64,000 bases of DNA from Escherichia coli (GTDB lineage: Bacteria; Pseudomonadota; Gammaproteobacteria; Enterobacterales; Enterobacteriaceae). Both the position numbers and the translations under genes were made by a program. Below are positions 5,527 to 60,577 of this stretch, piece after piece (position 1 is the first letter of the stretch; each line of letters begins with the position of its first letter). The notes below the pieces were generated by a model, which saw only the letters and a program-made list of their open reading frames with translations, made no database searches and was not told the DNA's origin. Location: assembly GCF_003018255.1 (NCBI RefSeq), contig NZ_CP027440.1; one strand, 5' to 3'.

Positions 5527-6178
5527 GCCACTAACCTGGGAAAACGCCTTCTTTGGTGTTAACAGCGCCATTGTGCGCATTAGTCCTGAAGCACCGCTCC
5601 TGACGCCAGACGCCTTAGCGCCGTGGTCACGGGTGCAGGCCAAAATTGCGGCATCAAATACGGATGAACTGGATGCCTTGCAACAGCTGGGATTCTCCCT
5701 GGTAGAAGGTGAAGTTGATTTGGCGCTACCCGTAAACAATGTCAGTGATAGTGGTGCTGTAGTGGCACAAGAGACCGATATTCCCGCATTACGTCAGTTA
5801 GCCAGCGCCGCATTTGCGCAAAGCCGTTTTCGTGCGCCGTGGTATGCGCCTGACGCCAGCGGTCGCTTTTATGCACAGTGGATTGAAAATGCCGTGCGCG
5901 GCACCTTTGATCATCAATGCCTCATTTTACGTTCGGCGTCCGGCGATATTCGTGGCTATGTCTCTTTACGGGAACTCAATGCGACAGATGCGCGAATTGG
6001 CCTGCTGGCTGGACGCGGTGCAGGTGCTGAGCTGATGCAAACAGCGCTAAACTGGGCGTATGCTCGCGGTAAAACAACTTTGCGGGTGGCGACCCAAATG
6101 GGCAACACCGCCGCGCTAAAACGATACATACAAAGTGGTGCGAATGTAGAAAGCACCGCGTACTGGTTATACAGGTGA
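5504..6178 (+). CDS. wecD: dTDP-fucosamine acetyltransferase
   Basis: 224 aa GTG-initiated ORF in the expected ECA position between rffH and wecE; GNAT-like C-terminal region. Confidence 0.8.
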
Positions 6179-50818: not shown

Positions 50819-50846
50819 AATGGCTTCCAGTACTGGAAGCCATTTT
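50819..50846 (+). terminator. Rho-independent terminator after metE
   Basis: Hairpin AATGGCTTCCAG-TACT-GGAAGCCATT followed by TTTG. Confidence 0.7.
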
Positions 50847-51270: not shown

Positions 51271-51528
51271 TCAGAAGAGGTTGTCTTGTTGTTCTTTGAT
51301 AAGATTCAATCCATATTGAGAAACTCTGTAGCGTGGTTTAGAGTTGCCCTCACCATTTACGATATCAACCAACCCATGATTAACCAGCTTTGTTACGATA
51401 TTCGCTACGTTGCCAAATCCTGGAATATTTCGTATAGCTAAAGTACGATCCAGCACCATCCAGCTCCAGTCAATATCTTTCTCAGCCATAACTTTCAGCA
51501 CGTTAAATTCAACTATCGTAATCGTCAT
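51271..51528 (-). CDS. putative cognate immunity protein of the Hcp-fusion effector
   Basis: 85 aa; start codon overlaps the stop of the upstream Hcp-fusion gene (ATGA at 51525-51528), the arrangement typical of effector-immunity pairs. Confidence 0.55.
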   Translation of the reverse strand: MTITIVEFNVLKVMAEKDIDWSWMVLDRTLAIRNIPGFGNVANIVTKLVNHGLVDIVNGEGNSKPRYRVSQYGLNLIKEQQDNLF

Positions 51529-52658
51529 TTTTTTGCATCCGGATGAAATAAGTCAGTATCTTTAATTTTAAAGTCTTCTAGAGTTGCAGTATGTACATTA
51601 TTCCATAATTCATATCCATCTAAACCTTTCGGTTCACCTGTTTCCCATCCTAAATTACAATAACGCTGATACTCGCGACATTCATGAGTATAGTAGTTCA
51701 GATCGTATTTTTCAGGAAGCAATTCTTTATTTGCTATTTTCTTTAGCCTTGAAATCATTACATCATTAGCTGGATCATGATCAAATCTGGAGATATGCTT
51801 TTCAACAATAGCGATACCTTCCCTGTTGATTGTTACGCCATCTATCGTCAGGTTTTCAATTGGACCACCGGCAAGGTCGGGATTAAATGGTCTTCCTGAT
51901 ACTGCTCCTCTGGCTCCGAAATGCTCAAGTGATTCCAAATCAGGGAATCTCATTCTTCCCAGAACAACTCCAGCAACTATTGAAGCACCAGCGATGAGTA
52001 ACCCTTTGTTATCCATAACTTGATCGTAACCAGCAGGTGCATCTCCTCCCAACTTGTTTGCTGTTTCCCTGAATCCTTCGATATTCCCATTGTATATGCC
52101 GCCAGCAGCAAGCAGTCTGCCAACCGCTTTACTATTGAGTGTTTTGAGGCCATTATCATCTTTAGTTTTTGGCCGTGGTATAAACAGACGGTTGTAGTTA
52201 TCGGGAAATGCCAAATAACTAAATTCAGTATTAGCAATCAGATGCCTGGAGAGTATATATTCATAACTGGCAGTGATGGTTTCTGTATCCAGATTGTTCT
52301 CAGTAAACAGGTGATTGATTGCTGATAAGAGCGCGCCGCGGAGTTGAATGTTGTAATATTTCTCCCATCGACCAAATCTATTGATCCGATAGAAGTCAAA
52401 CTCCATGAACAACTGCTCGTTATTGTTAATAGCGTTAATAAGTAACGGGGAGCTTTTGTCAATCAACTTACAGAAACTAAGGCCATGTAATTGTGACCCT
52501 TTGCCTGTATTCGTAATACTATTAGATAGCGAGAACGCGAAGATTTCATCTTCATGGCCAATCTGCCAGCGATTACCTATTGATGCGCTCGTTCCGCAAC
52601 GAGAGGAAATACATCCTTGTTGTTCTCCGGTTATGGTCAGGTAAATAATATCACTCAT
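51525..52658 (-). CDS. Hcp-domain protein with C-terminal extension (candidate T6SS Hcp-effector fusion, Hcp-ET-like)
   Basis: 377 aa; N-terminal ~165 aa match the Hcp tube-protein signature (YLTITGEQQG...DEIFAFSLSNSITNTGKGS...LSFCKLIDKSSPLLINA; compare Hcp FIKIGDVKGES...IDVLAWSWG...LSFTKYIDKSTPNL); ~210 aa C-terminal extension of unrecognised fold; AT-rich. Confidence 0.7.
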   Translation of the reverse strand: MSDIIYLTITGEQQGCISSRCGTSASIGNRWQIGHEDEIFAFSLSNSITNTGKGSQLHGLSFCKLIDKSSPLLINAINNNEQLFMEFDFYRINRFGRWEKYYNIQLRGALLSAINHLFTENNLDTETITASYEYILSRHLIANTEFSYLAFPDNYNRLFIPRPKTKDDNGLKTLNSKAVGRLLAAGGIYNGNIEGFRETANKLGGDAPAGYDQVMDNKGLLIAGASIVAGVVLGRMRFPDLESLEHFGARGAVSGRPFNPDLAGGPIENLTIDGVTINREGIAIVEKHISRFDHDPANDVMISRLKKIANKELLPEKYDLNYYTHECREYQRYCNLGWETGEPKGLDGYELWNNVHTATLEDFKIKDTDLFHPDAKK

Positions 52659-54123: not shown

Positions 54124-54888
54124 ATGTCCAAGTCTGATGTTTTTCATCTCGGCCTCACTAAAAACGATTTACAAGGGGCTACGCTTGCCATCGTCCCTGG
54201 CGACCCGGATCGTGTGGAAAAGATCGCCGCGCTGATGGATAAGCCGGTTAAGCTGGCATCTCACCGCGAATTCACCACCTGGCGTGCAGAGCTGGATGGT
54301 AAACCTGTTATCGTCTGCTCTACCGGTATCGGCGGCCCGTCTACCTCTATTGCTGTTGAAGAGCTGGCACAGCTGGGCATTCGCACCTTCCTGCGTATCG
54401 GTACAACGGGCGCTATTCAGCCGCATATTAATGTGGGTGATGTCCTGGTTACCACGGCGTCTGTTCGTCTGGACGGCGCGAGCCTGCACTTCGCACCGCT
54501 GGAATTCCCGGCTGTCGCTGATTTCGAATGTACGACTGCGCTGGTTGAAGCGGCGAAGTCAATTGGTGCCACCACTCACGTTGGTGTGACGGCTTCTTCT
54601 GATACCTTCTACCCGGGTCAGGAACGTTACGATACTTACTCTGGTCGCGTAGTTCGTCACTTTAAAGGTTCTATGGAAGAGTGGCAGGCGATGGGCGTAA
54701 TGAACTATGAAATGGAATCTGCAACCCTGCTGACCATGTGTGCAAGTCAGGGCCTGCGTGCCGGTATGGTAGCGGGGGTTATCGTTAACCGCACCCAGCA
54801 AGAGATCCCGAATGCTGAGACGATGAAACAAACCGAGAGCCATGCGGTGAAAATCGTGGTGGAAGCGGCGCGTCGTCTGCTGAAATAA
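54124..54888 (+). CDS. udp: uridine phosphorylase
   Basis: 253 aa from ATG 54124 ([35 protein letters not shown]); PNP/UDP family. Confidence 0.9.
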
Positions 54889-54913
54889 AAAACGCTCCCC
54901 AACTTCGGGGAGC
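54889..54913. terminator. hairpin terminator shared by udp and the convergent tct operon
   Basis: GCTCCCC-AACTTC-GGGGAGC hairpin; the T-run lies on the minus-strand side (complement of AAAAAACG), so it is best placed to terminate the minus-strand tct operon. Confidence 0.6.
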
Positions 54914-54921
54914 GATATCAG

Positions 54922-56412
54922 TTACTGACGCCGTAAACGCATTATTTTGCGGATTATTGGCGTCAGTAGCGTAAAGGCTGCCAGAGTTAGCAATGCCAGA
55001 GTGATCGGTCGGGTATACAGAAAGTCCAGTGAACCCCCTGAAAGCGACAGCGCACGGCGAAAATTACTTTCTGCCATCGGGCCCATAATCAATGCCAGCA
55101 CTACGGGTGATGCCGGATATCCTCCTTTCTGCATGAAATAGCCCACCACGCCTGCAATCAGCATAATGCCAACATCAAACAGGCTATTGTTCAACGCATA
55201 AGTCCCGACCACACAAAGTGCGAGGATCATCGGTGTGAGAATATTGCCGGGGATCTTCACCACGTTACCGATGACTTTCAAAGAGAGCAGTCCAAGAACT
55301 AGCAGCATGAAGTAACAAAAGATCATGCCGACAAACAGTGTATAAACCATATCGCCGTGGTCGGTAAACATCAGCGGGCCTGGTTGCATTCCCTGTAACG
55401 TTAACGCGCCCAGCATGATGGCGGTTACCGCATCGCCAGGGATCCCCAGCGTCAGCATAGGTAACAATGCGCCACCGGTGCAGCCATTCGCGCCTGCCTC
55501 ACAGGAGGCCACAGCTTTAATTTCACCCTTACCAAAGTTTTCTGGTGTCTTACTGAAACGACGAGTTTCGTTATAGGCAACAAAAGCTGCAATATCCGCC
55601 CCCGCACCGGGGATCATGCCGATAAAAACCCCTAATCCTGATGAGCGCAAAATGGTTAATGCAATGCGGCGTAGTGTTTGCCAGGGCAGTAACAGACTGC
55701 CGATAGCCACCTTCGCCCCCTGACGAATTTGCTGGTTTTGCTCCATAGAGCGGAATGCTTCTGAAGCAGCAAATAAACCAATCATCACCGGGATAAATGG
55801 CACATTCATCAGCTCCACAAATCCACCTGTAAACCGTGGAAAACCGCCCATTGGATCAAGGCCTATCGTTGCGATCAGCAATCCGCCAACCCCGGCAATC
55901 AGCCCTTTAATCAGCGACTCACCGGAAATACTGGCAATAATACTCAGTCCGAAGGTTGCCAGGGCGAAGGACTCCGAGGCACTAAATTTCAGCGCCCAAC
56001 TGGCAAGTACCGGAGAGAGAAACATCAGCACGATAATGCTGAGCGTTCCGCCACTAAAGGAAGAGAACGTGGCGGCACTCAATGCCAGCCCTGCTTTTCC
56101 CTGTTTCGTCAGCTCATAACCATCAATAGCGGTGGCTGCGGCGGCAGGCGTTCCGGGAATTTTGAGCAAAATTGCGGTGATAGAACCACCGTAGACGCCA
56201 CCAAAAAAGACGCCGCAAATCATCAACAAGCCAGAAACAGGCTCCATGCCGTAGGTGAAAGGCAGCAAAATCGCCACACCCATGGTCGCTGTCAGACCAG
56301 GCAAAGCGCCAATCACAATACCCAGCATCACCCCAAAAGTGGCAAACAGCAGCGCCTGAGGATTATTGAGTAATGTCGAAAAACCCTGAGTTAAAAGTTC
56401 ACTTTCAAACAT
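54922..56412 (-). CDS. tctA: tripartite tricarboxylate transporter large permease
   Basis: 496 aa, many TM helices; TctA-family features (GAITAILLKIPGTPAAAAT, GMIPGAGADIAAFVAYNE). Confidence 0.75.
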   Translation of the reverse strand: MFESELLTQGFSTLLNNPQALLFATFGVMLGIVIGALPGLTATMGVAILLPFTYGMEPVSGLLMICGVFFGGVYGGSITAILLKIPGTPAAAATAIDGYELTKQGKAGLALSAATFSSFSGGTLSIIVLMFLSPVLASWALKFSASESFALATFGLSIIASISGESLIKGLIAGVGGLLIATIGLDPMGGFPRFTGGFVELMNVPFIPVMIGLFAASEAFRSMEQNQQIRQGAKVAIGSLLLPWQTLRRIALTILRSSGLGVFIGMIPGAGADIAAFVAYNETRRFSKTPENFGKGEIKAVASCEAGANGCTGGALLPMLTLGIPGDAVTAIMLGALTLQGMQPGPLMFTDHGDMVYTLFVGMIFCYFMLLVLGLLSLKVIGNVVKIPGNILTPMILALCVVGTYALNNSLFDVGIMLIAGVVGYFMQKGGYPASPVVLALIMGPMAESNFRRALSLSGGSLDFLYTRPITLALLTLAAFTLLTPIIRKIMRLRRQ

Positions 56413-56424
56413 TGCTGGCCCCTG

Positions 56425-56934
56425 TTATTCGAAAAATGTGCCGACAGGCAATGGCACCTGTAACGCTTCGACAAACAGCAACCAGAGGATTGCCGTTAAC
56501 AGCAGCGCAATACCCGGTGTGAGTACCCATCGCCTGTAGCCCATCAACGTCATAATGACGATGAGGAAAACAGGAGTAGTAATGAGATAACCGCAGTAGC
56601 TCATCGCCACAATATAAAACGCGGTTGCCGCAATTCCTGTTGCTGTTTTCCTGAATGCCGGTTTTTCCTGTGCGTTGGCGCAAGAGGCTGGTTTTGCCTG
56701 CAAAAGATCGCGTATCACCAGCAAGACAGCGAGCACAATCAGGGCACAGGCATAGAAGGTAGGGAAGGCACTTGCACCGGGATCCGTTTCAATGGCAGTT
56801 GCTGGAAAATCAGCGGCATTAATCATCACCGCGCCAGCAACCACACAAAGTAACAGCGCCACCACCATCGTTGATGAAAGGCGCTTGCGGTGCGGTACGG
56901 CGAGTTGAGCAACAGACTGTTTTGTGTTCATCAA
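56425..56934 (-). CDS. tctB: tripartite tricarboxylate transporter small membrane subunit
   Basis: 169 aa with 4 TM helices, between tctC-like and tctA-like genes. Confidence 0.65.
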   Translation of the reverse strand: MMNTKQSVAQLAVPHRKRLSSTMVVALLLCVVAGAVMINAADFPATAIETDPGASAFPTFYACALIVLAVLLVIRDLLQAKPASCANAQEKPAFRKTATGIAATAFYIVAMSYCGYLITTPVFLIVIMTLMGYRRWVLTPGIALLLTAILWLLFVEALQVPLPVGTFFE

Positions 56935-56947
56935 CCGTACCTCAGGT

Positions 56948-57922
56948 TTATTTTTTCAGGCCCAGGCGAGTCAGCAACTCGTCAAAGTACTTTTCCTGTT
57001 CGCTGATTTGGGTCTGGAAGCTGGCAGCGTCAAGCCATGCATAGTTGAGATTCAACTTTTGCAGTGCATCCTGGAATGCAGGCTCTTCAGCCGTCTCTTT
57101 TGCTGCCTTTGCCAGAACATCCACCACATCCTGCGGCGTTTTTTGCGACACAATCAGGCCGCGCCAGGTGCCGATGGAGAGATCAACGCCTTTCTCTTTT
57201 AACGTCGGGACGTCAGGCATGGTTTTCATTCGCTCATCCGCCATCACTACCAGTGTCTTCAGCTTGCCGCCATTCACATGGTTGATAACTTCTCCTGGGC
57301 TTACGGAAACCGCTTCAATATGCCCGCCTAACAGGCCTGTAATGGCAGGGGCTGCGCCGTCATACGGGACATGAGAAAACTTTGTGCCCGTTTTGTCTTC
57401 CAGTGCAGCTGCCGCCAGATGCCAGATAGCTCCGGTGCCTGAGTTACCAATGCGTACTTTTCCGGGATTCGCTTTGGAGTAAGCCATAAATTCTTCATAG
57501 CTATTCCACGGCGCATCGGCACGGACTGTGATAGCAGCCGGATCCGCATTCAGACGGGCAATGGGTTTAAAGTCGCTGGTTTTAAAACGCACCATTCCGA
57601 GGCTGGGAAGGGTGGTCAGTTCAACCGTGCCTAAACCAATTTTGTAACCGTTAGGGCGGGCAGCGGCGATTTCACTCAGGCCGATAGCACCGCCTCCGCC
57701 AGGTTTATTGATAACCCCGATGCTGACGGGTAAATGGTTTTTGGCGGCATCAGCAAAGGCACGGGCAACCAGATCCGTACCGCCTCCGGCAGCGTAGGGA
57801 ACGACTAACTCGATCTGTTTGGTTGGGTAGGAGGCAGCCTGTACAGGCGCAATGCTGAGGGCAGCGCCTGCAAGAAGTACCATTGCAGCCATTTTTTTCG
57901 GTAAGGTAAGATGTTTTATCAT
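56948..57922 (-). CDS. tctC: tripartite tricarboxylate transporter periplasmic substrate-binding protein (Bug/TctC family)
   Basis: 324 aa; signal peptide; Bug-family architecture (IELVVPYAAGGGTDLVAR, GNSGTGAIWHLAA). Confidence 0.75.
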   Translation of the reverse strand: MIKHLTLPKKMAAMVLLAGAALSIAPVQAASYPTKQIELVVPYAAGGGTDLVARAFADAAKNHLPVSIGVINKPGGGGAIGLSEIAAARPNGYKIGLGTVELTTLPSLGMVRFKTSDFKPIARLNADPAAITVRADAPWNSYEEFMAYSKANPGKVRIGNSGTGAIWHLAAAALEDKTGTKFSHVPYDGAAPAITGLLGGHIEAVSVSPGEVINHVNGGKLKTLVVMADERMKTMPDVPTLKEKGVDLSIGTWRGLIVSQKTPQDVVDVLAKAAKETAEEPAFQDALQKLNLNYAWLDAASFQTQISEQEKYFDELLTRLGLKK

Positions 57923-57946: not shown

Positions 57947-58576
57947 TTAGTTGCTATTTAAATTGTTCCATGCGTTCATAAACAGTACTGCATTTTCATA
58001 GACTTGCTCTGGCGTCATGCCGGGGCGATATAGCGCAGAACCGAGGCCAAAGCCGTTTGCGCCGTGGCTCAGATAACGCGCCATGGTTTCCGGTGTGATA
58101 CCGCCAACCGGTAACATCGGAACGGATTGTGGAATAACCGCACGCCAGGCTTTGGTAACTTCTGGCGTAATTTGTTCAGCCGGGAACAGCTTGATGGCAT
58201 TAGCACCATGTTCAATGGCAGCAAAGGCTTCGGTGGGCGTGGCGACGCCAGGCGCACAATACATACCCAGCGCACGGGCGCGACGGATCACCGCAGTATC
58301 GCAATGCGGCATCACGATAATCTGGCCCCCAGCCTCTTTAACCGCAACCACCTGCTCTACCGAAAGCACAGTTCCGGCTCCGACCAGGCAGTCCTTAGGC
58401 AGGGCGTCGCGCAGTAAACTGATACTTTGCAACGCCTCCGGCGAGTTCATAGGAATCTCAATCAGGCGGAATCCGGCGGCGTACAGTTTTTCACCGATGG
58501 CGACAATCTCATCCGGTTTCACGCCGCGTAAAATGGCGACTAACCCGGTTTTTTGCAAAAGTGTATTAAATGGCAT
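57947..58576 (-). CDS. 2-dehydro-3-deoxy-6-phosphogalactonate (KDPGal) aldolase-like
   Basis: ORF track starts at 58651; ATG at 58576 with SD (MPFNTLLQKTGLVAILRGVKPDE) aligns along its length with remembered E. coli DgoA (KLPLIAILRGITPDE...EIPLNSP...GAGTVL...VGGVTPEN). Confidence 0.75.
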   Translation of the reverse strand: MPFNTLLQKTGLVAILRGVKPDEIVAIGEKLYAAGFRLIEIPMNSPEALQSISLLRDALPKDCLVGAGTVLSVEQVVAVKEAGGQIIVMPHCDTAVIRRARALGMYCAPGVATPTEAFAAIEHGANAIKLFPAEQITPEVTKAWRAVIPQSVPMLPVGGITPETMARYLSHGANGFGLGSALYRPGMTPEQVYENAVLFMNAWNNLNSN

Positions 58577-59570
58577 GGGTACATTCCCTGGCGTTGGTGG
58601 ACAGTAACCCGGCAGCGTGGGCGATTCGCCATAATCCATGTTCAGTGGCATTAGGAATGGCGTGTATCTGTCTGTCGGGAAAAACGTGGCTGAATGCTTG
58701 TGAATAGCGGCTGTTCAGATTTGCGCTACCGATTAAGGCGATCGGTGTTGTGGCGGGTAAATCACGTAGCAAACTGGATGCCAGACCACATAATTCATGG
58801 CCTATCAGTAATCCGGAAAGGTAATCCCCCTGCGAGGACGACGTAAGATTACTGGTCAGCAGGCGCGAACGGGTCGAAAACAGCGTCGATAATAATCCGG
58901 TCTGATGATGCTCTTGTGCTGCTGTCAGCCCGTGGGTGAAGGCATCCCAGTGCGGTTCATCTCCAGGATGCATGGTGGCACCGAGAATCGAATGGCGGGA
59001 TAAAACATCAAATAACTCGCCCGTCATAAAGGTTCGGAAATCGGTAATGGTGTTGTTTTCAACTACTGCCCATTTCGCATGTGTGCCGGGTAAGCCTATC
59101 AGCACTGGCATACCCTGATGGATCGCGTTTTGCAGGGCCGGTTCCATCGAGATAGCACCGAAGATTTGTGTCTCTTCGCCACGCATCACTTCGGGCATTT
59201 CACCTTCTTTAATCACGCCAGGAATGATGTGCAGCATTGTCTGCTGCTGGTGGATAACAGGCGTCAACTGCTTCGCCAGACCCTCGAGAGTGACCGGGCA
59301 AGGTAAATAAGCTGCTGATTGCCACCCTTGCGCACTGCCGAGCATGCCGCAAGCCAGTACCGGGCATGGGGTTTGTGCCAGCCAGTCGCCGCAGACACGT
59401 AAAAACGTATCGTGGAAAGCGTCCTCACGTGTTGCTGCCTGGGAGGGTAATTTCATGATCCCCCAGGGGAATTCACGTTTTTCTTGTGGATTTGGTGATT
59501 CGCCAAAACGCCATGCCCGAAGCGATGACGTTCCCCAGTCCAGGGCAATAAATGAGGGTGCTCCCGGCAT
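58566..59570 (-). CDS. 2-dehydro-3-deoxygalactonokinase-like
   Basis: 334 aa; IALDWGTSSLRAW and VMRGEETQIFGA motifs match DgoK (IAIDWGSTNLRAW, VMRGEETQLIGA); 3' end overlaps the aldolase start. Confidence 0.75.
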   Translation of the reverse strand: MPGAPSFIALDWGTSSLRAWRFGESPNPQEKREFPWGIMKLPSQAATREDAFHDTFLRVCGDWLAQTPCPVLACGMLGSAQGWQSAAYLPCPVTLEGLAKQLTPVIHQQQTMLHIIPGVIKEGEMPEVMRGEETQIFGAISMEPALQNAIHQGMPVLIGLPGTHAKWAVVENNTITDFRTFMTGELFDVLSRHSILGATMHPGDEPHWDAFTHGLTAAQEHHQTGLLSTLFSTRSRLLTSNLTSSSQGDYLSGLLIGHELCGLASSLLRDLPATTPIALIGSANLNSRYSQAFSHVFPDRQIHAIPNATEHGLWRIAHAAGLLSTNARECTHAI

Positions 59571-59593: not shown

Positions 59594-60361
59594 TTATTTA
59601 TCTTTGCGGACGTGCTTACCCCAGCCCAGTTCAGCGGATATCTCTTCTGCACAGGATTTGACGTAAGGTGCCAGTTCTTCCAGACGCGCCAGCGACATAT
59701 ACGTGGTGGTACTGGCGACAGAAATAGCCGCCACAATTTCATCCCGGGCGTTGTAAACCGGCGCTGCAACGCAACGGATAGTCGGCTCGTTCTCTTCCAG
59801 ATCAAAAGCAAAACCACTGGCGGCATAACGACGCATGTTCTGAATAAATGCGCCCAGTTTTGTTTCATCACCACAGGTCTTAAACAGCGTGCGCCACTCT
59901 TCTTCTGTTCGGTTGAGGATCAATGCCTTGCCGATGCCGGTGATTGCCAGTGGCATGCGATGGCCTGGGCGTGAGCGCATTTCCAGCCCGCGCTGACTGT
60001 TGATCTTCTCCAGATACAGCACTTCGTCGCCTTCAACGATCCCCAGATGCACGGTGTCCAGGGTGTAACGGGCAAGGCGTTGCAAAACGGGCTGGGCAAT
60101 TTCGTACAGTGAGGTGCTTTCCAGTGCTCTGGCACCGAATTCGATCAGTTTGGCACCCAGTTGGTAGCCCTGCGTTGGGACATGGCGCAGGTAGCGTTGT
60201 TCCACCAGAACGGTGACTAAACGATGGGTTGTGCTCCGGGTCGTGCCGGTGAACTCGCCGATACTTTTTAGGTCATGGCAGCCGTTATAAACAGCATTAA
60301 GAACCGCCAGTCCACGTAATAACGTTTGTGCGCCTGCGGTGGTTGAAGAGGTTTCTGCCAT
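59594..60361 (-). CDS. IclR/KdgR-family transcriptional regulator
   Basis: ORF track starts at 60535; ATG at 60361 with AGGAG SD (MAETSSTTAGAQTLLRGLAVLNAV) gives ~255 aa; N-terminal winged HTH and C-terminal effector domain laid out as in KdgR. Confidence 0.7.
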   Translation of the reverse strand: MAETSSTTAGAQTLLRGLAVLNAVYNGCHDLKSIGEFTGTTRSTTHRLVTVLVEQRYLRHVPTQGYQLGAKLIEFGARALESTSLYEIAQPVLQRLARYTLDTVHLGIVEGDEVLYLEKINSQRGLEMRSRPGHRMPLAITGIGKALILNRTEEEWRTLFKTCGDETKLGAFIQNMRRYAASGFAFDLEENEPTIRCVAAPVYNARDEIVAAISVASTTTYMSLARLEELAPYVKSCAEEISAELGWGKHVRKDK

Positions 60362-60422
60362 ACGTTTCTCCTGATGATATTGCTGAAGTGTTCCACATAA
60401 TGACGTGGGGAAAAGGTGATAT

Positions 60423-60458
60423 ATCCCACAATATAAACTCCATCTCATATTGTGGGAT
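60423..60458. promoter_or_regulatory. perfect inverted repeat, candidate operator of the IclR-family regulator
   Basis: ATCCCACAATAT-N12-ATATTGTGGGAT, 12-bp perfect arms, 60-100 bp upstream of the regulator start and about 120 bp upstream of rmuC. Confidence 0.4.
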
Positions 60459-60577
60459 AAAATAATGAAAATTAACGATCGTTTTGCGTAGCGCCTCGCA
60501 GGAAATGCCTTTCCAACTGGACGTTTGTACAGCACAATTCTATTTTGTGCGGGTAAGTTGTTGCGTCAGGAGGCGTT

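Follow-up and report, generated by a model that had tools for sequence, protein, structure and literature searches.

A predicted two-box operator upstream of an IclR-family regulator in a sugar-acid island of Escherichia coli

The 64-kb window, i.e., the whole stretch of E. coli DNA analysed here, contains an accessory island of 5.6 kb, which lies between udp and the genes rmuC-ubiE-ubiJ-ubiB, and which carries an inverted repeat. The island genes are all encoded on the minus strand (59594 down to 54922). The first gene of the operon codes for an IclR-family regulator of 255 amino acids (59594-60361), the presumed binder of the repeat, and is followed by the genes for a 2-dehydro-3-deoxygalactonokinase (2-keto-3-deoxygalactonate (KDGal) kinase; 58566-59570, RefSeq annotation) and a 2-dehydro-3-deoxy-6-phosphogalactonate (KDPGal) aldolase (57947-58651; 321.6 bits, with a cut-off of 207). 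TctC (56948-57922), TctB (56425-56934) and TctA (54922-56412) complete the island and constitute a transporter of the tripartite tricarboxylate type (54922-57922).

In K-12-like genomes, rmuC directly follows udp. Among 5426 complete E. coli genomes, 1456 match a 215-bp intergenic query over its full length and contain the island; the remaining genomes match only positions 120-215 of the query, corresponding to 60482-60577 of the window. When the two junctions are aligned with the empty site, the island is seen to have taken the place of the udp terminator region. Its right junction with the conserved DNA upstream of rmuC is located at 60481-60482 (no strand), and the inverted repeat sits 22 bp inside this junction. 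Since island-free genomes match 60482-60577 only, the palindrome is island DNA, and the possibility considered in the preliminary description, that it is a component of the conserved rmuC promoter in genomes without the island, is not borne out.

The island edges (54880-54930 and 60470-60482) show further peculiarities on the udp side. The udp gene ends with one additional codon (CTG CTG AAA TAA, compared to CTG CTG TAA in K-12), the island has taken the place of the K-12 udp terminator, and a different stem-loop, CGCTCCCCAACTTCGGGGAGCG, comes after udp. In E. coli 14EC047 (locus L001, 6562-8050), the island tctA is annotated as frameshifted and the intergenic region is 100% identical to the window; in E. 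coli SCPM-O-B-8794 (locus L004), the regulator match is shorter and reaches only 82% identity, and the corresponding protein cluster (P0005) has a length of 217 amino acids. The island may be decaying in some lineages. Outside the island, a 377-aa ORF on the minus strand (51525-52658) lies between metE and ysgA, which adjoin each other in K-12. It consists of an N-terminal Hcp/TssD domain (residues 1-147) and an unassigned C-terminal extension, and may represent an extended Hcp effector.

The regulator contains the IclR helix-turn-helix and effector domains (PF09339 and PF01614), is matched by IclR-family models of NCBIfam and resembles solved IclR-family structures, including TtgV (PDB relatives 2xrn/2xro and 1mkm). 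Its identification as KdgR was rejected, because it reaches 129.7 bits compared to the KdgR equivalog cut-off of 275. [quoted passage not shown] Relatives are found in Phytobacter (67% identity), Citrobacter and Lelliottia (62% and 53%) and Brenneria (54%), and, with 53-58% identity, in many Burkholderiaceae and in Achromobacter, Bordetella and Collimonas.

The inverted repeat consists of ATCCCACAATAT (60423-60434) and ATATTGTGGGAT (60447-60458), separated by 12 nt. The preliminary description of a perfect 12-bp repeat with an N12 spacer is exact, although the perfect arms are in fact one base longer and comprise 13 nt each (TATCCCACAATAT, 60422-60434; ATATTGTGGGATA, 60447-60459). The repeat is located, as described there, in the 216-bp gap between the regulator-led operon and the divergent rmuC, which extends between the start codon of the regulator (ATG, 60361, minus strand) and that of rmuC (60578), and it covers positions -61 to -98 relative to the regulator ATG. 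The window contains only two perfect inverted repeats whose arms measure 12 nt or more and whose spacer does not exceed 30 nt. By comparison, 200 first-order Markov simulations of the window gave an expectation of 0.135 such repeats per 64-kb window, and 9.5% of the simulated windows contained any. The other perfect repeat is a spacer-less 26-bp palindrome (AATGGCTTCCAGT/ACTGGAAGCCATT, 50819-50844) about 37 nt past the metE stop codon. No second copy of the arm was found within the 64-kb window when up to one mismatch was allowed.

The conservation of the site was followed in 80 loci from Phytobacter, Citrobacter, Lelliottia, Brenneria, the Burkholderia group, Achromobacter, Bordetella and Collimonas, each containing a regulator relative with 53-96% identity. 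The genes for the regulator, the kinase and the aldolase occur together in all 80 loci, and the enteric loci also retain TctCBA. The regulator gene of Achromobacter, Bordetella and Collimonas is oriented divergently from the kinase and aldolase genes. In Paraburkholderia nodosa, genes for an SDR dehydrogenase and an AraG-type ABC ATPase follow in the operon, in keeping with an oxidative galactose/arabinose pathway.

By unbiased motif sampling and an inverted-repeat search of the upstream regions, one recurrent element was recovered, consisting of two 15-bp boxes resembling TCCCA-N5-TGGGA. Nearly all of the loci contain a related site, which immediately precedes the regulator or, where regulator and kinase are divergent, occupies the gap between them, and the centres of the two boxes are 19-21 bp apart in all lineages. 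Sixty-two Burkholderiaceae sites align without gaps to AATCCCAtTATaTGA-N9-TCAcATATTGGAGAT, with TC.CA..AT.TG and TCA.AT.TTG as invariant columns. The first and second boxes are TCCCACATATTGGGA and TTTTATATTATGGTA in Phytobacter, TCCCTATATATGAAA and GTTTATAATGTGGTA in Citrobacter (first regulator copy), and TCTCAAAATATAGAA and TCCCACATATAGGGA in Achromobacter and Bordetella; Collimonas and Brenneria contain similar box pairs. In a few Paraburkholderia sites (L039, L050 and L067; columns 11 and 33 of alignment A4), a T-to-C change in one box is mirrored by an A-to-G change in the other (CCAACATATG...CATATGTTGG), and this symmetric change could reflect co-evolution with the protein.

In E. coli, the distal box (60443-60457, minus strand) reads TCCCACAATATGAGA in the sense of the regulator gene; it is a near-palindrome of 5-5-5 organisation and matches the distal-box consensus of the Burkholderiaceae as well as the boxes of the other relatives. 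The proximal box (60424-60438, minus strand), GTTTATATTGTGGGA, has a strong outer half, TGGGA, and its inner half GTTTA and TATAWT core are conserved in four enteric genera. In E. coli, the two outer half-sites share the sequence TCCCACA and the two AT cores are likewise identical to each other, which gives rise to the perfect 13-nt arms. This composite site (60422-60459, no strand), with its 12-nt spacer, is read here as a putative two-box operator, and two 15-bp boxes describe its functional unit better than the notation 12-N12-12 does.

Several searches address the specificity of the site. The E. coli 16-mer, with up to four mismatches, has 33 matches in 38 kb of regulator-upstream DNA compared to six in the other 883 kb, and four of these six are again sites upstream of a regulator gene, located beyond the 500-nt zone. 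The Burkholderiaceae consensus ATCCCAWTATATGA, with up to two mismatches, has a single match in the 64-kb window, at 60445-60458 in the distal box; with 0.54 matches expected per window, this is not significant window-wide, and its weight derives from its location in the 216-bp regulatory gap. A 16-nt weight matrix obtained by Gibbs sampling of non-Escherichia upstream regions did not place the E. coli site among its top matches in the window, and an nhmmer profile of 58 composite Burkholderiaceae sites gave only weak partial matches in the window, with E = 14 for the arm at 60444-60459. Neither method ranked the E. coli site first in the window, because the boxes differ by 1-nt indels. In addition, the matrix is over-fitted to related Burkholderiaceae sites, and the training set is phylogenetically redundant; the many Burkholderiaceae loci are related and thus represent only a handful of independent lineages.

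Co-conservation of site and regulator across taxa is what a comparison of genomes should reveal if the operator is cognate and autoregulatory. Among the features that would mark an autoregulatory operator of the IclR family, IclR domains in the adjacent regulator, a pseudopalindrome in the gene's own upstream region and co-conservation of the two across taxa are present. The inverted repeat is therefore quite probably, as judged from comparative sequence analysis, the operator of the island's own IclR-family regulator, controlling the sugar-acid operon. The proposal of an autoregulatory operator in the preliminary description thus gains support from the related two-box sites beside regulator relatives in distant gamma- and beta-proteobacteria. 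One of the observations counting against it concerns a second regulator gene. Citrobacter amalonaticus and Lelliottia contain a second regulator copy downstream of tctA (5900-6000 in both L006 and L007), and the E. coli regulator shares 62% identity with this second copy but 53% with the syntenic first copy, yet the matching two-box site accompanies the first. The motif upstream of the second copy is different and consists of direct repeats, TTATCGYAC, approx. 23 bp apart. The genes downstream of the second Citrobacter copy were uninformative as to its targets.

The two 15-bp pseudo-palindromic boxes of the TCCCA-N5-TGGGA type have their centres 19 bp apart, about two helical turns, and each would be bound by one dimer. 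With one dimer per box, the whole site would fit a tetramer, i.e., a dimer of dimers. IclR-family repressors typically bind DNA as tetramers, which are dissociated by the ligand (PMC5814911). The site appears to overlap the likely promoter of the operon formed by the regulator, kinase, aldolase and tctCBA genes. A regulator bound there would accordingly keep its own operon repressed for as long as no pathway intermediate displaces it, and relief of repression by such an intermediate is likely. The island lacks a dehydratase, so that a plausible ligand would be 2-keto-3-deoxygalactonate, or else D-galactonate that the dgo genes of the chromosome process, although naming either is a guess.

In Phytobacter, the promoter-like hexamers TTCCCA-18-TATATT would place the -35 element in the outer half of the distal box and the -10 element in the core of the proximal box; in Paraburkholderia (TGGAGA-17-TACAAT), the -35 element would be the outer half of the proximal box. 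Citrobacter has TATAAT at the place of the candidate -10 element of E. coli. The E. coli sequence ATCCCA-17-TATATT (60458-60430, minus strand) shows the Phytobacter arrangement and stays below the threshold of the promoter scan: the candidate -35 element, ATCCCA (60453-60458, minus strand; three of six matches), would lie in the outer half of the distal box and, at a spacing of 17 nt, the candidate -10 element TATATT (60430-60435, minus strand; five of six matches) in the core of the proximal box. The promoter-like hexamers that overlap the site in the two relatives, and the Phytobacter-like arrangement in E. coli, favour autorepression by promoter occlusion.

The main alternative to autorepression is activation by the same regulator from the same site. 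In this case, the promoter would be located downstream, with CATTAT as the -10 element (60397-60402, minus strand), and the site would be located at about -32 to -69. The retention of CATTAT/TATTCT in Escherichia would agree with such an arrangement, as would the poor -35 region that the downstream promoter would have. The archaeal IclR-type regulator GacR activates the same galactose pathway, which lends activation a precedent (PMC10838023). In Phytobacter and Paraburkholderia, however, the promoter-like hexamers lie inside the boxes or abut them, which corresponds to the geometry of a repressor and makes activation unlikely. IclR-family sugar-acid regulators are, moreover, mostly repressors.

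The site is located only 119 bp upstream of the divergent core gene rmuC, and the bound regulator might thus also modulate rmuC; if true, this would link a recombination gene with a sugar-acid sensor gained by horizontal transfer. The perfect symmetry of the repeat is restricted to Escherichia, and its 13-nt arms could owe their origin to a correction of one box against the other by a quasi-palindrome (template-switch) mechanism. An extended proposal, in which the acquired regulator also modulates rmuC from this site and, separately, template-switch correction produced the Escherichia symmetry, is given little credence.

The inverted repeat could also act as a nucleic-acid hairpin, either as an RNA stem-loop in the operon leader or as a DNA cruciform, and the E. 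coli sequence, taken as RNA, does fold into a stem of 16 pairs (-20.3 kcal/mol, z = -4.6). This fold is not conserved together with the boxes, as shown by z-values of 0.1 in Citrobacter, -1.3 in Phytobacter and -0.9 in Achromobacter. Covariation in 32 Burkholderiaceae sites amounts to 0.107 compared to 0.113 in shuffles, with 361 of 500 shuffles at least as high, and the well-paired columns of these sites are invariant. Escherichia variants alter the distal arm or the spacer without compensation, and the proximal arm is invariant. At the level of sequence comparison, the conserved property is the sequence of the boxes and not their pairing, and a hairpin function is highly improbable. A structured RNA or intrinsic terminator was likewise rejected: a terminator scan revealed no terminator-like feature, covariation did not exceed that of shuffles, and an Rfam search returned no family, with a sub-threshold miRNA match only.

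Even less probable is a palindrome that arose by chance in AT-rich promoter DNA, or one that serves as the binding site of a different factor, for instance CRP. A CRP-like sequence, GGTGA-N6-CCACA (GGTGA-TATATC-CCACA, 60415-60430), does overlap the proximal arm, but it deviates from TGTGA-N6-TCACA by two mismatches, and such sites occur at chance level in the window (22 found, 26 expected). A chance origin is opposed by the conservation of the boxes across bacterial classes, where they always adjoin the regulator. Both halves of the CRP-like sequence at 60415-60430 are kept in Escherichia sp. E1V33. A role as terminal repeat or as recombination site for the mobile island, which the distance of 22 bp from the right junction might suggest, can be practically dismissed, because there is no partner copy at the left end of the island or elsewhere in the window, genomes contain a median of one match to the intergenic query, and Burkholderiales carry related sites on the chromosome in a non-island setting. 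The end of an IS, MITE or REP element was rejected as well, as the window contains neither multiple copies nor a partner repeat.

As a predicted operator of an IclR-family regulator, the site can be compared with several known systems. TtgV on the ttgG promoter (PDB 2XRO) and IclR on aceB share the winged-HTH IclR fold with the island regulator. The E. coli site also resembles the tetramer-type operators of TtgV and IclR in its size of approx. 38 bp and in its two dimer-sized pseudo-palindromes, which would overlap the likely promoter. The box sequence, of the TCCCA-N5-TGGGA type, is not known to be related to the IclR and KdgR boxes. KdgR of enterobacteria is likewise an IclR-family protein that regulates the catabolism of 2-keto-3-deoxy sugar acids and has a palindromic operator. 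As already remarked in the preliminary description, the palindrome does not resemble the KdgR box: no sequence resembling the consensus AATRAAAYRNYRTTTYATT is present in the intergenic region, and with up to three mismatches it has two matches in the window (38294 and 40309), which corresponds to chance level, and none near 60400. DgoR of the E. coli dgoRKADT operon controls the same two steps, KDGal kinase and KDPGal aldolase, but it is a GntR-family protein, unlike the IclR-family regulator of the island. The closest published analogue found is the IclR-family 'GalR' of the alphaproteobacterium Salinivirga, which was predicted by comparative genomics together with dgoK, a D-galactonate transporter of the TTT family and candidate upstream sites (Leyn et al. 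2017, PMC5507952). It is likened to the E. coli island by its gene set of IclR regulator, KDGal kinase and tripartite tricarboxylate-type transporter.

The understanding of the IclR family as a whole is unchanged by these observations. What they provide is a concrete candidate operator and a box consensus for an uncharacterised IclR regulator, whose island for sugar-acid uptake and catabolism is present in about a quarter of complete E. coli genomes, and whose predicted site is common to De Ley-Doudoroff (galactose/galactonate) operons of Burkholderiales. This would permit the prediction of its regulon, the identification of its ligand and possibly the construction of a biosensor.
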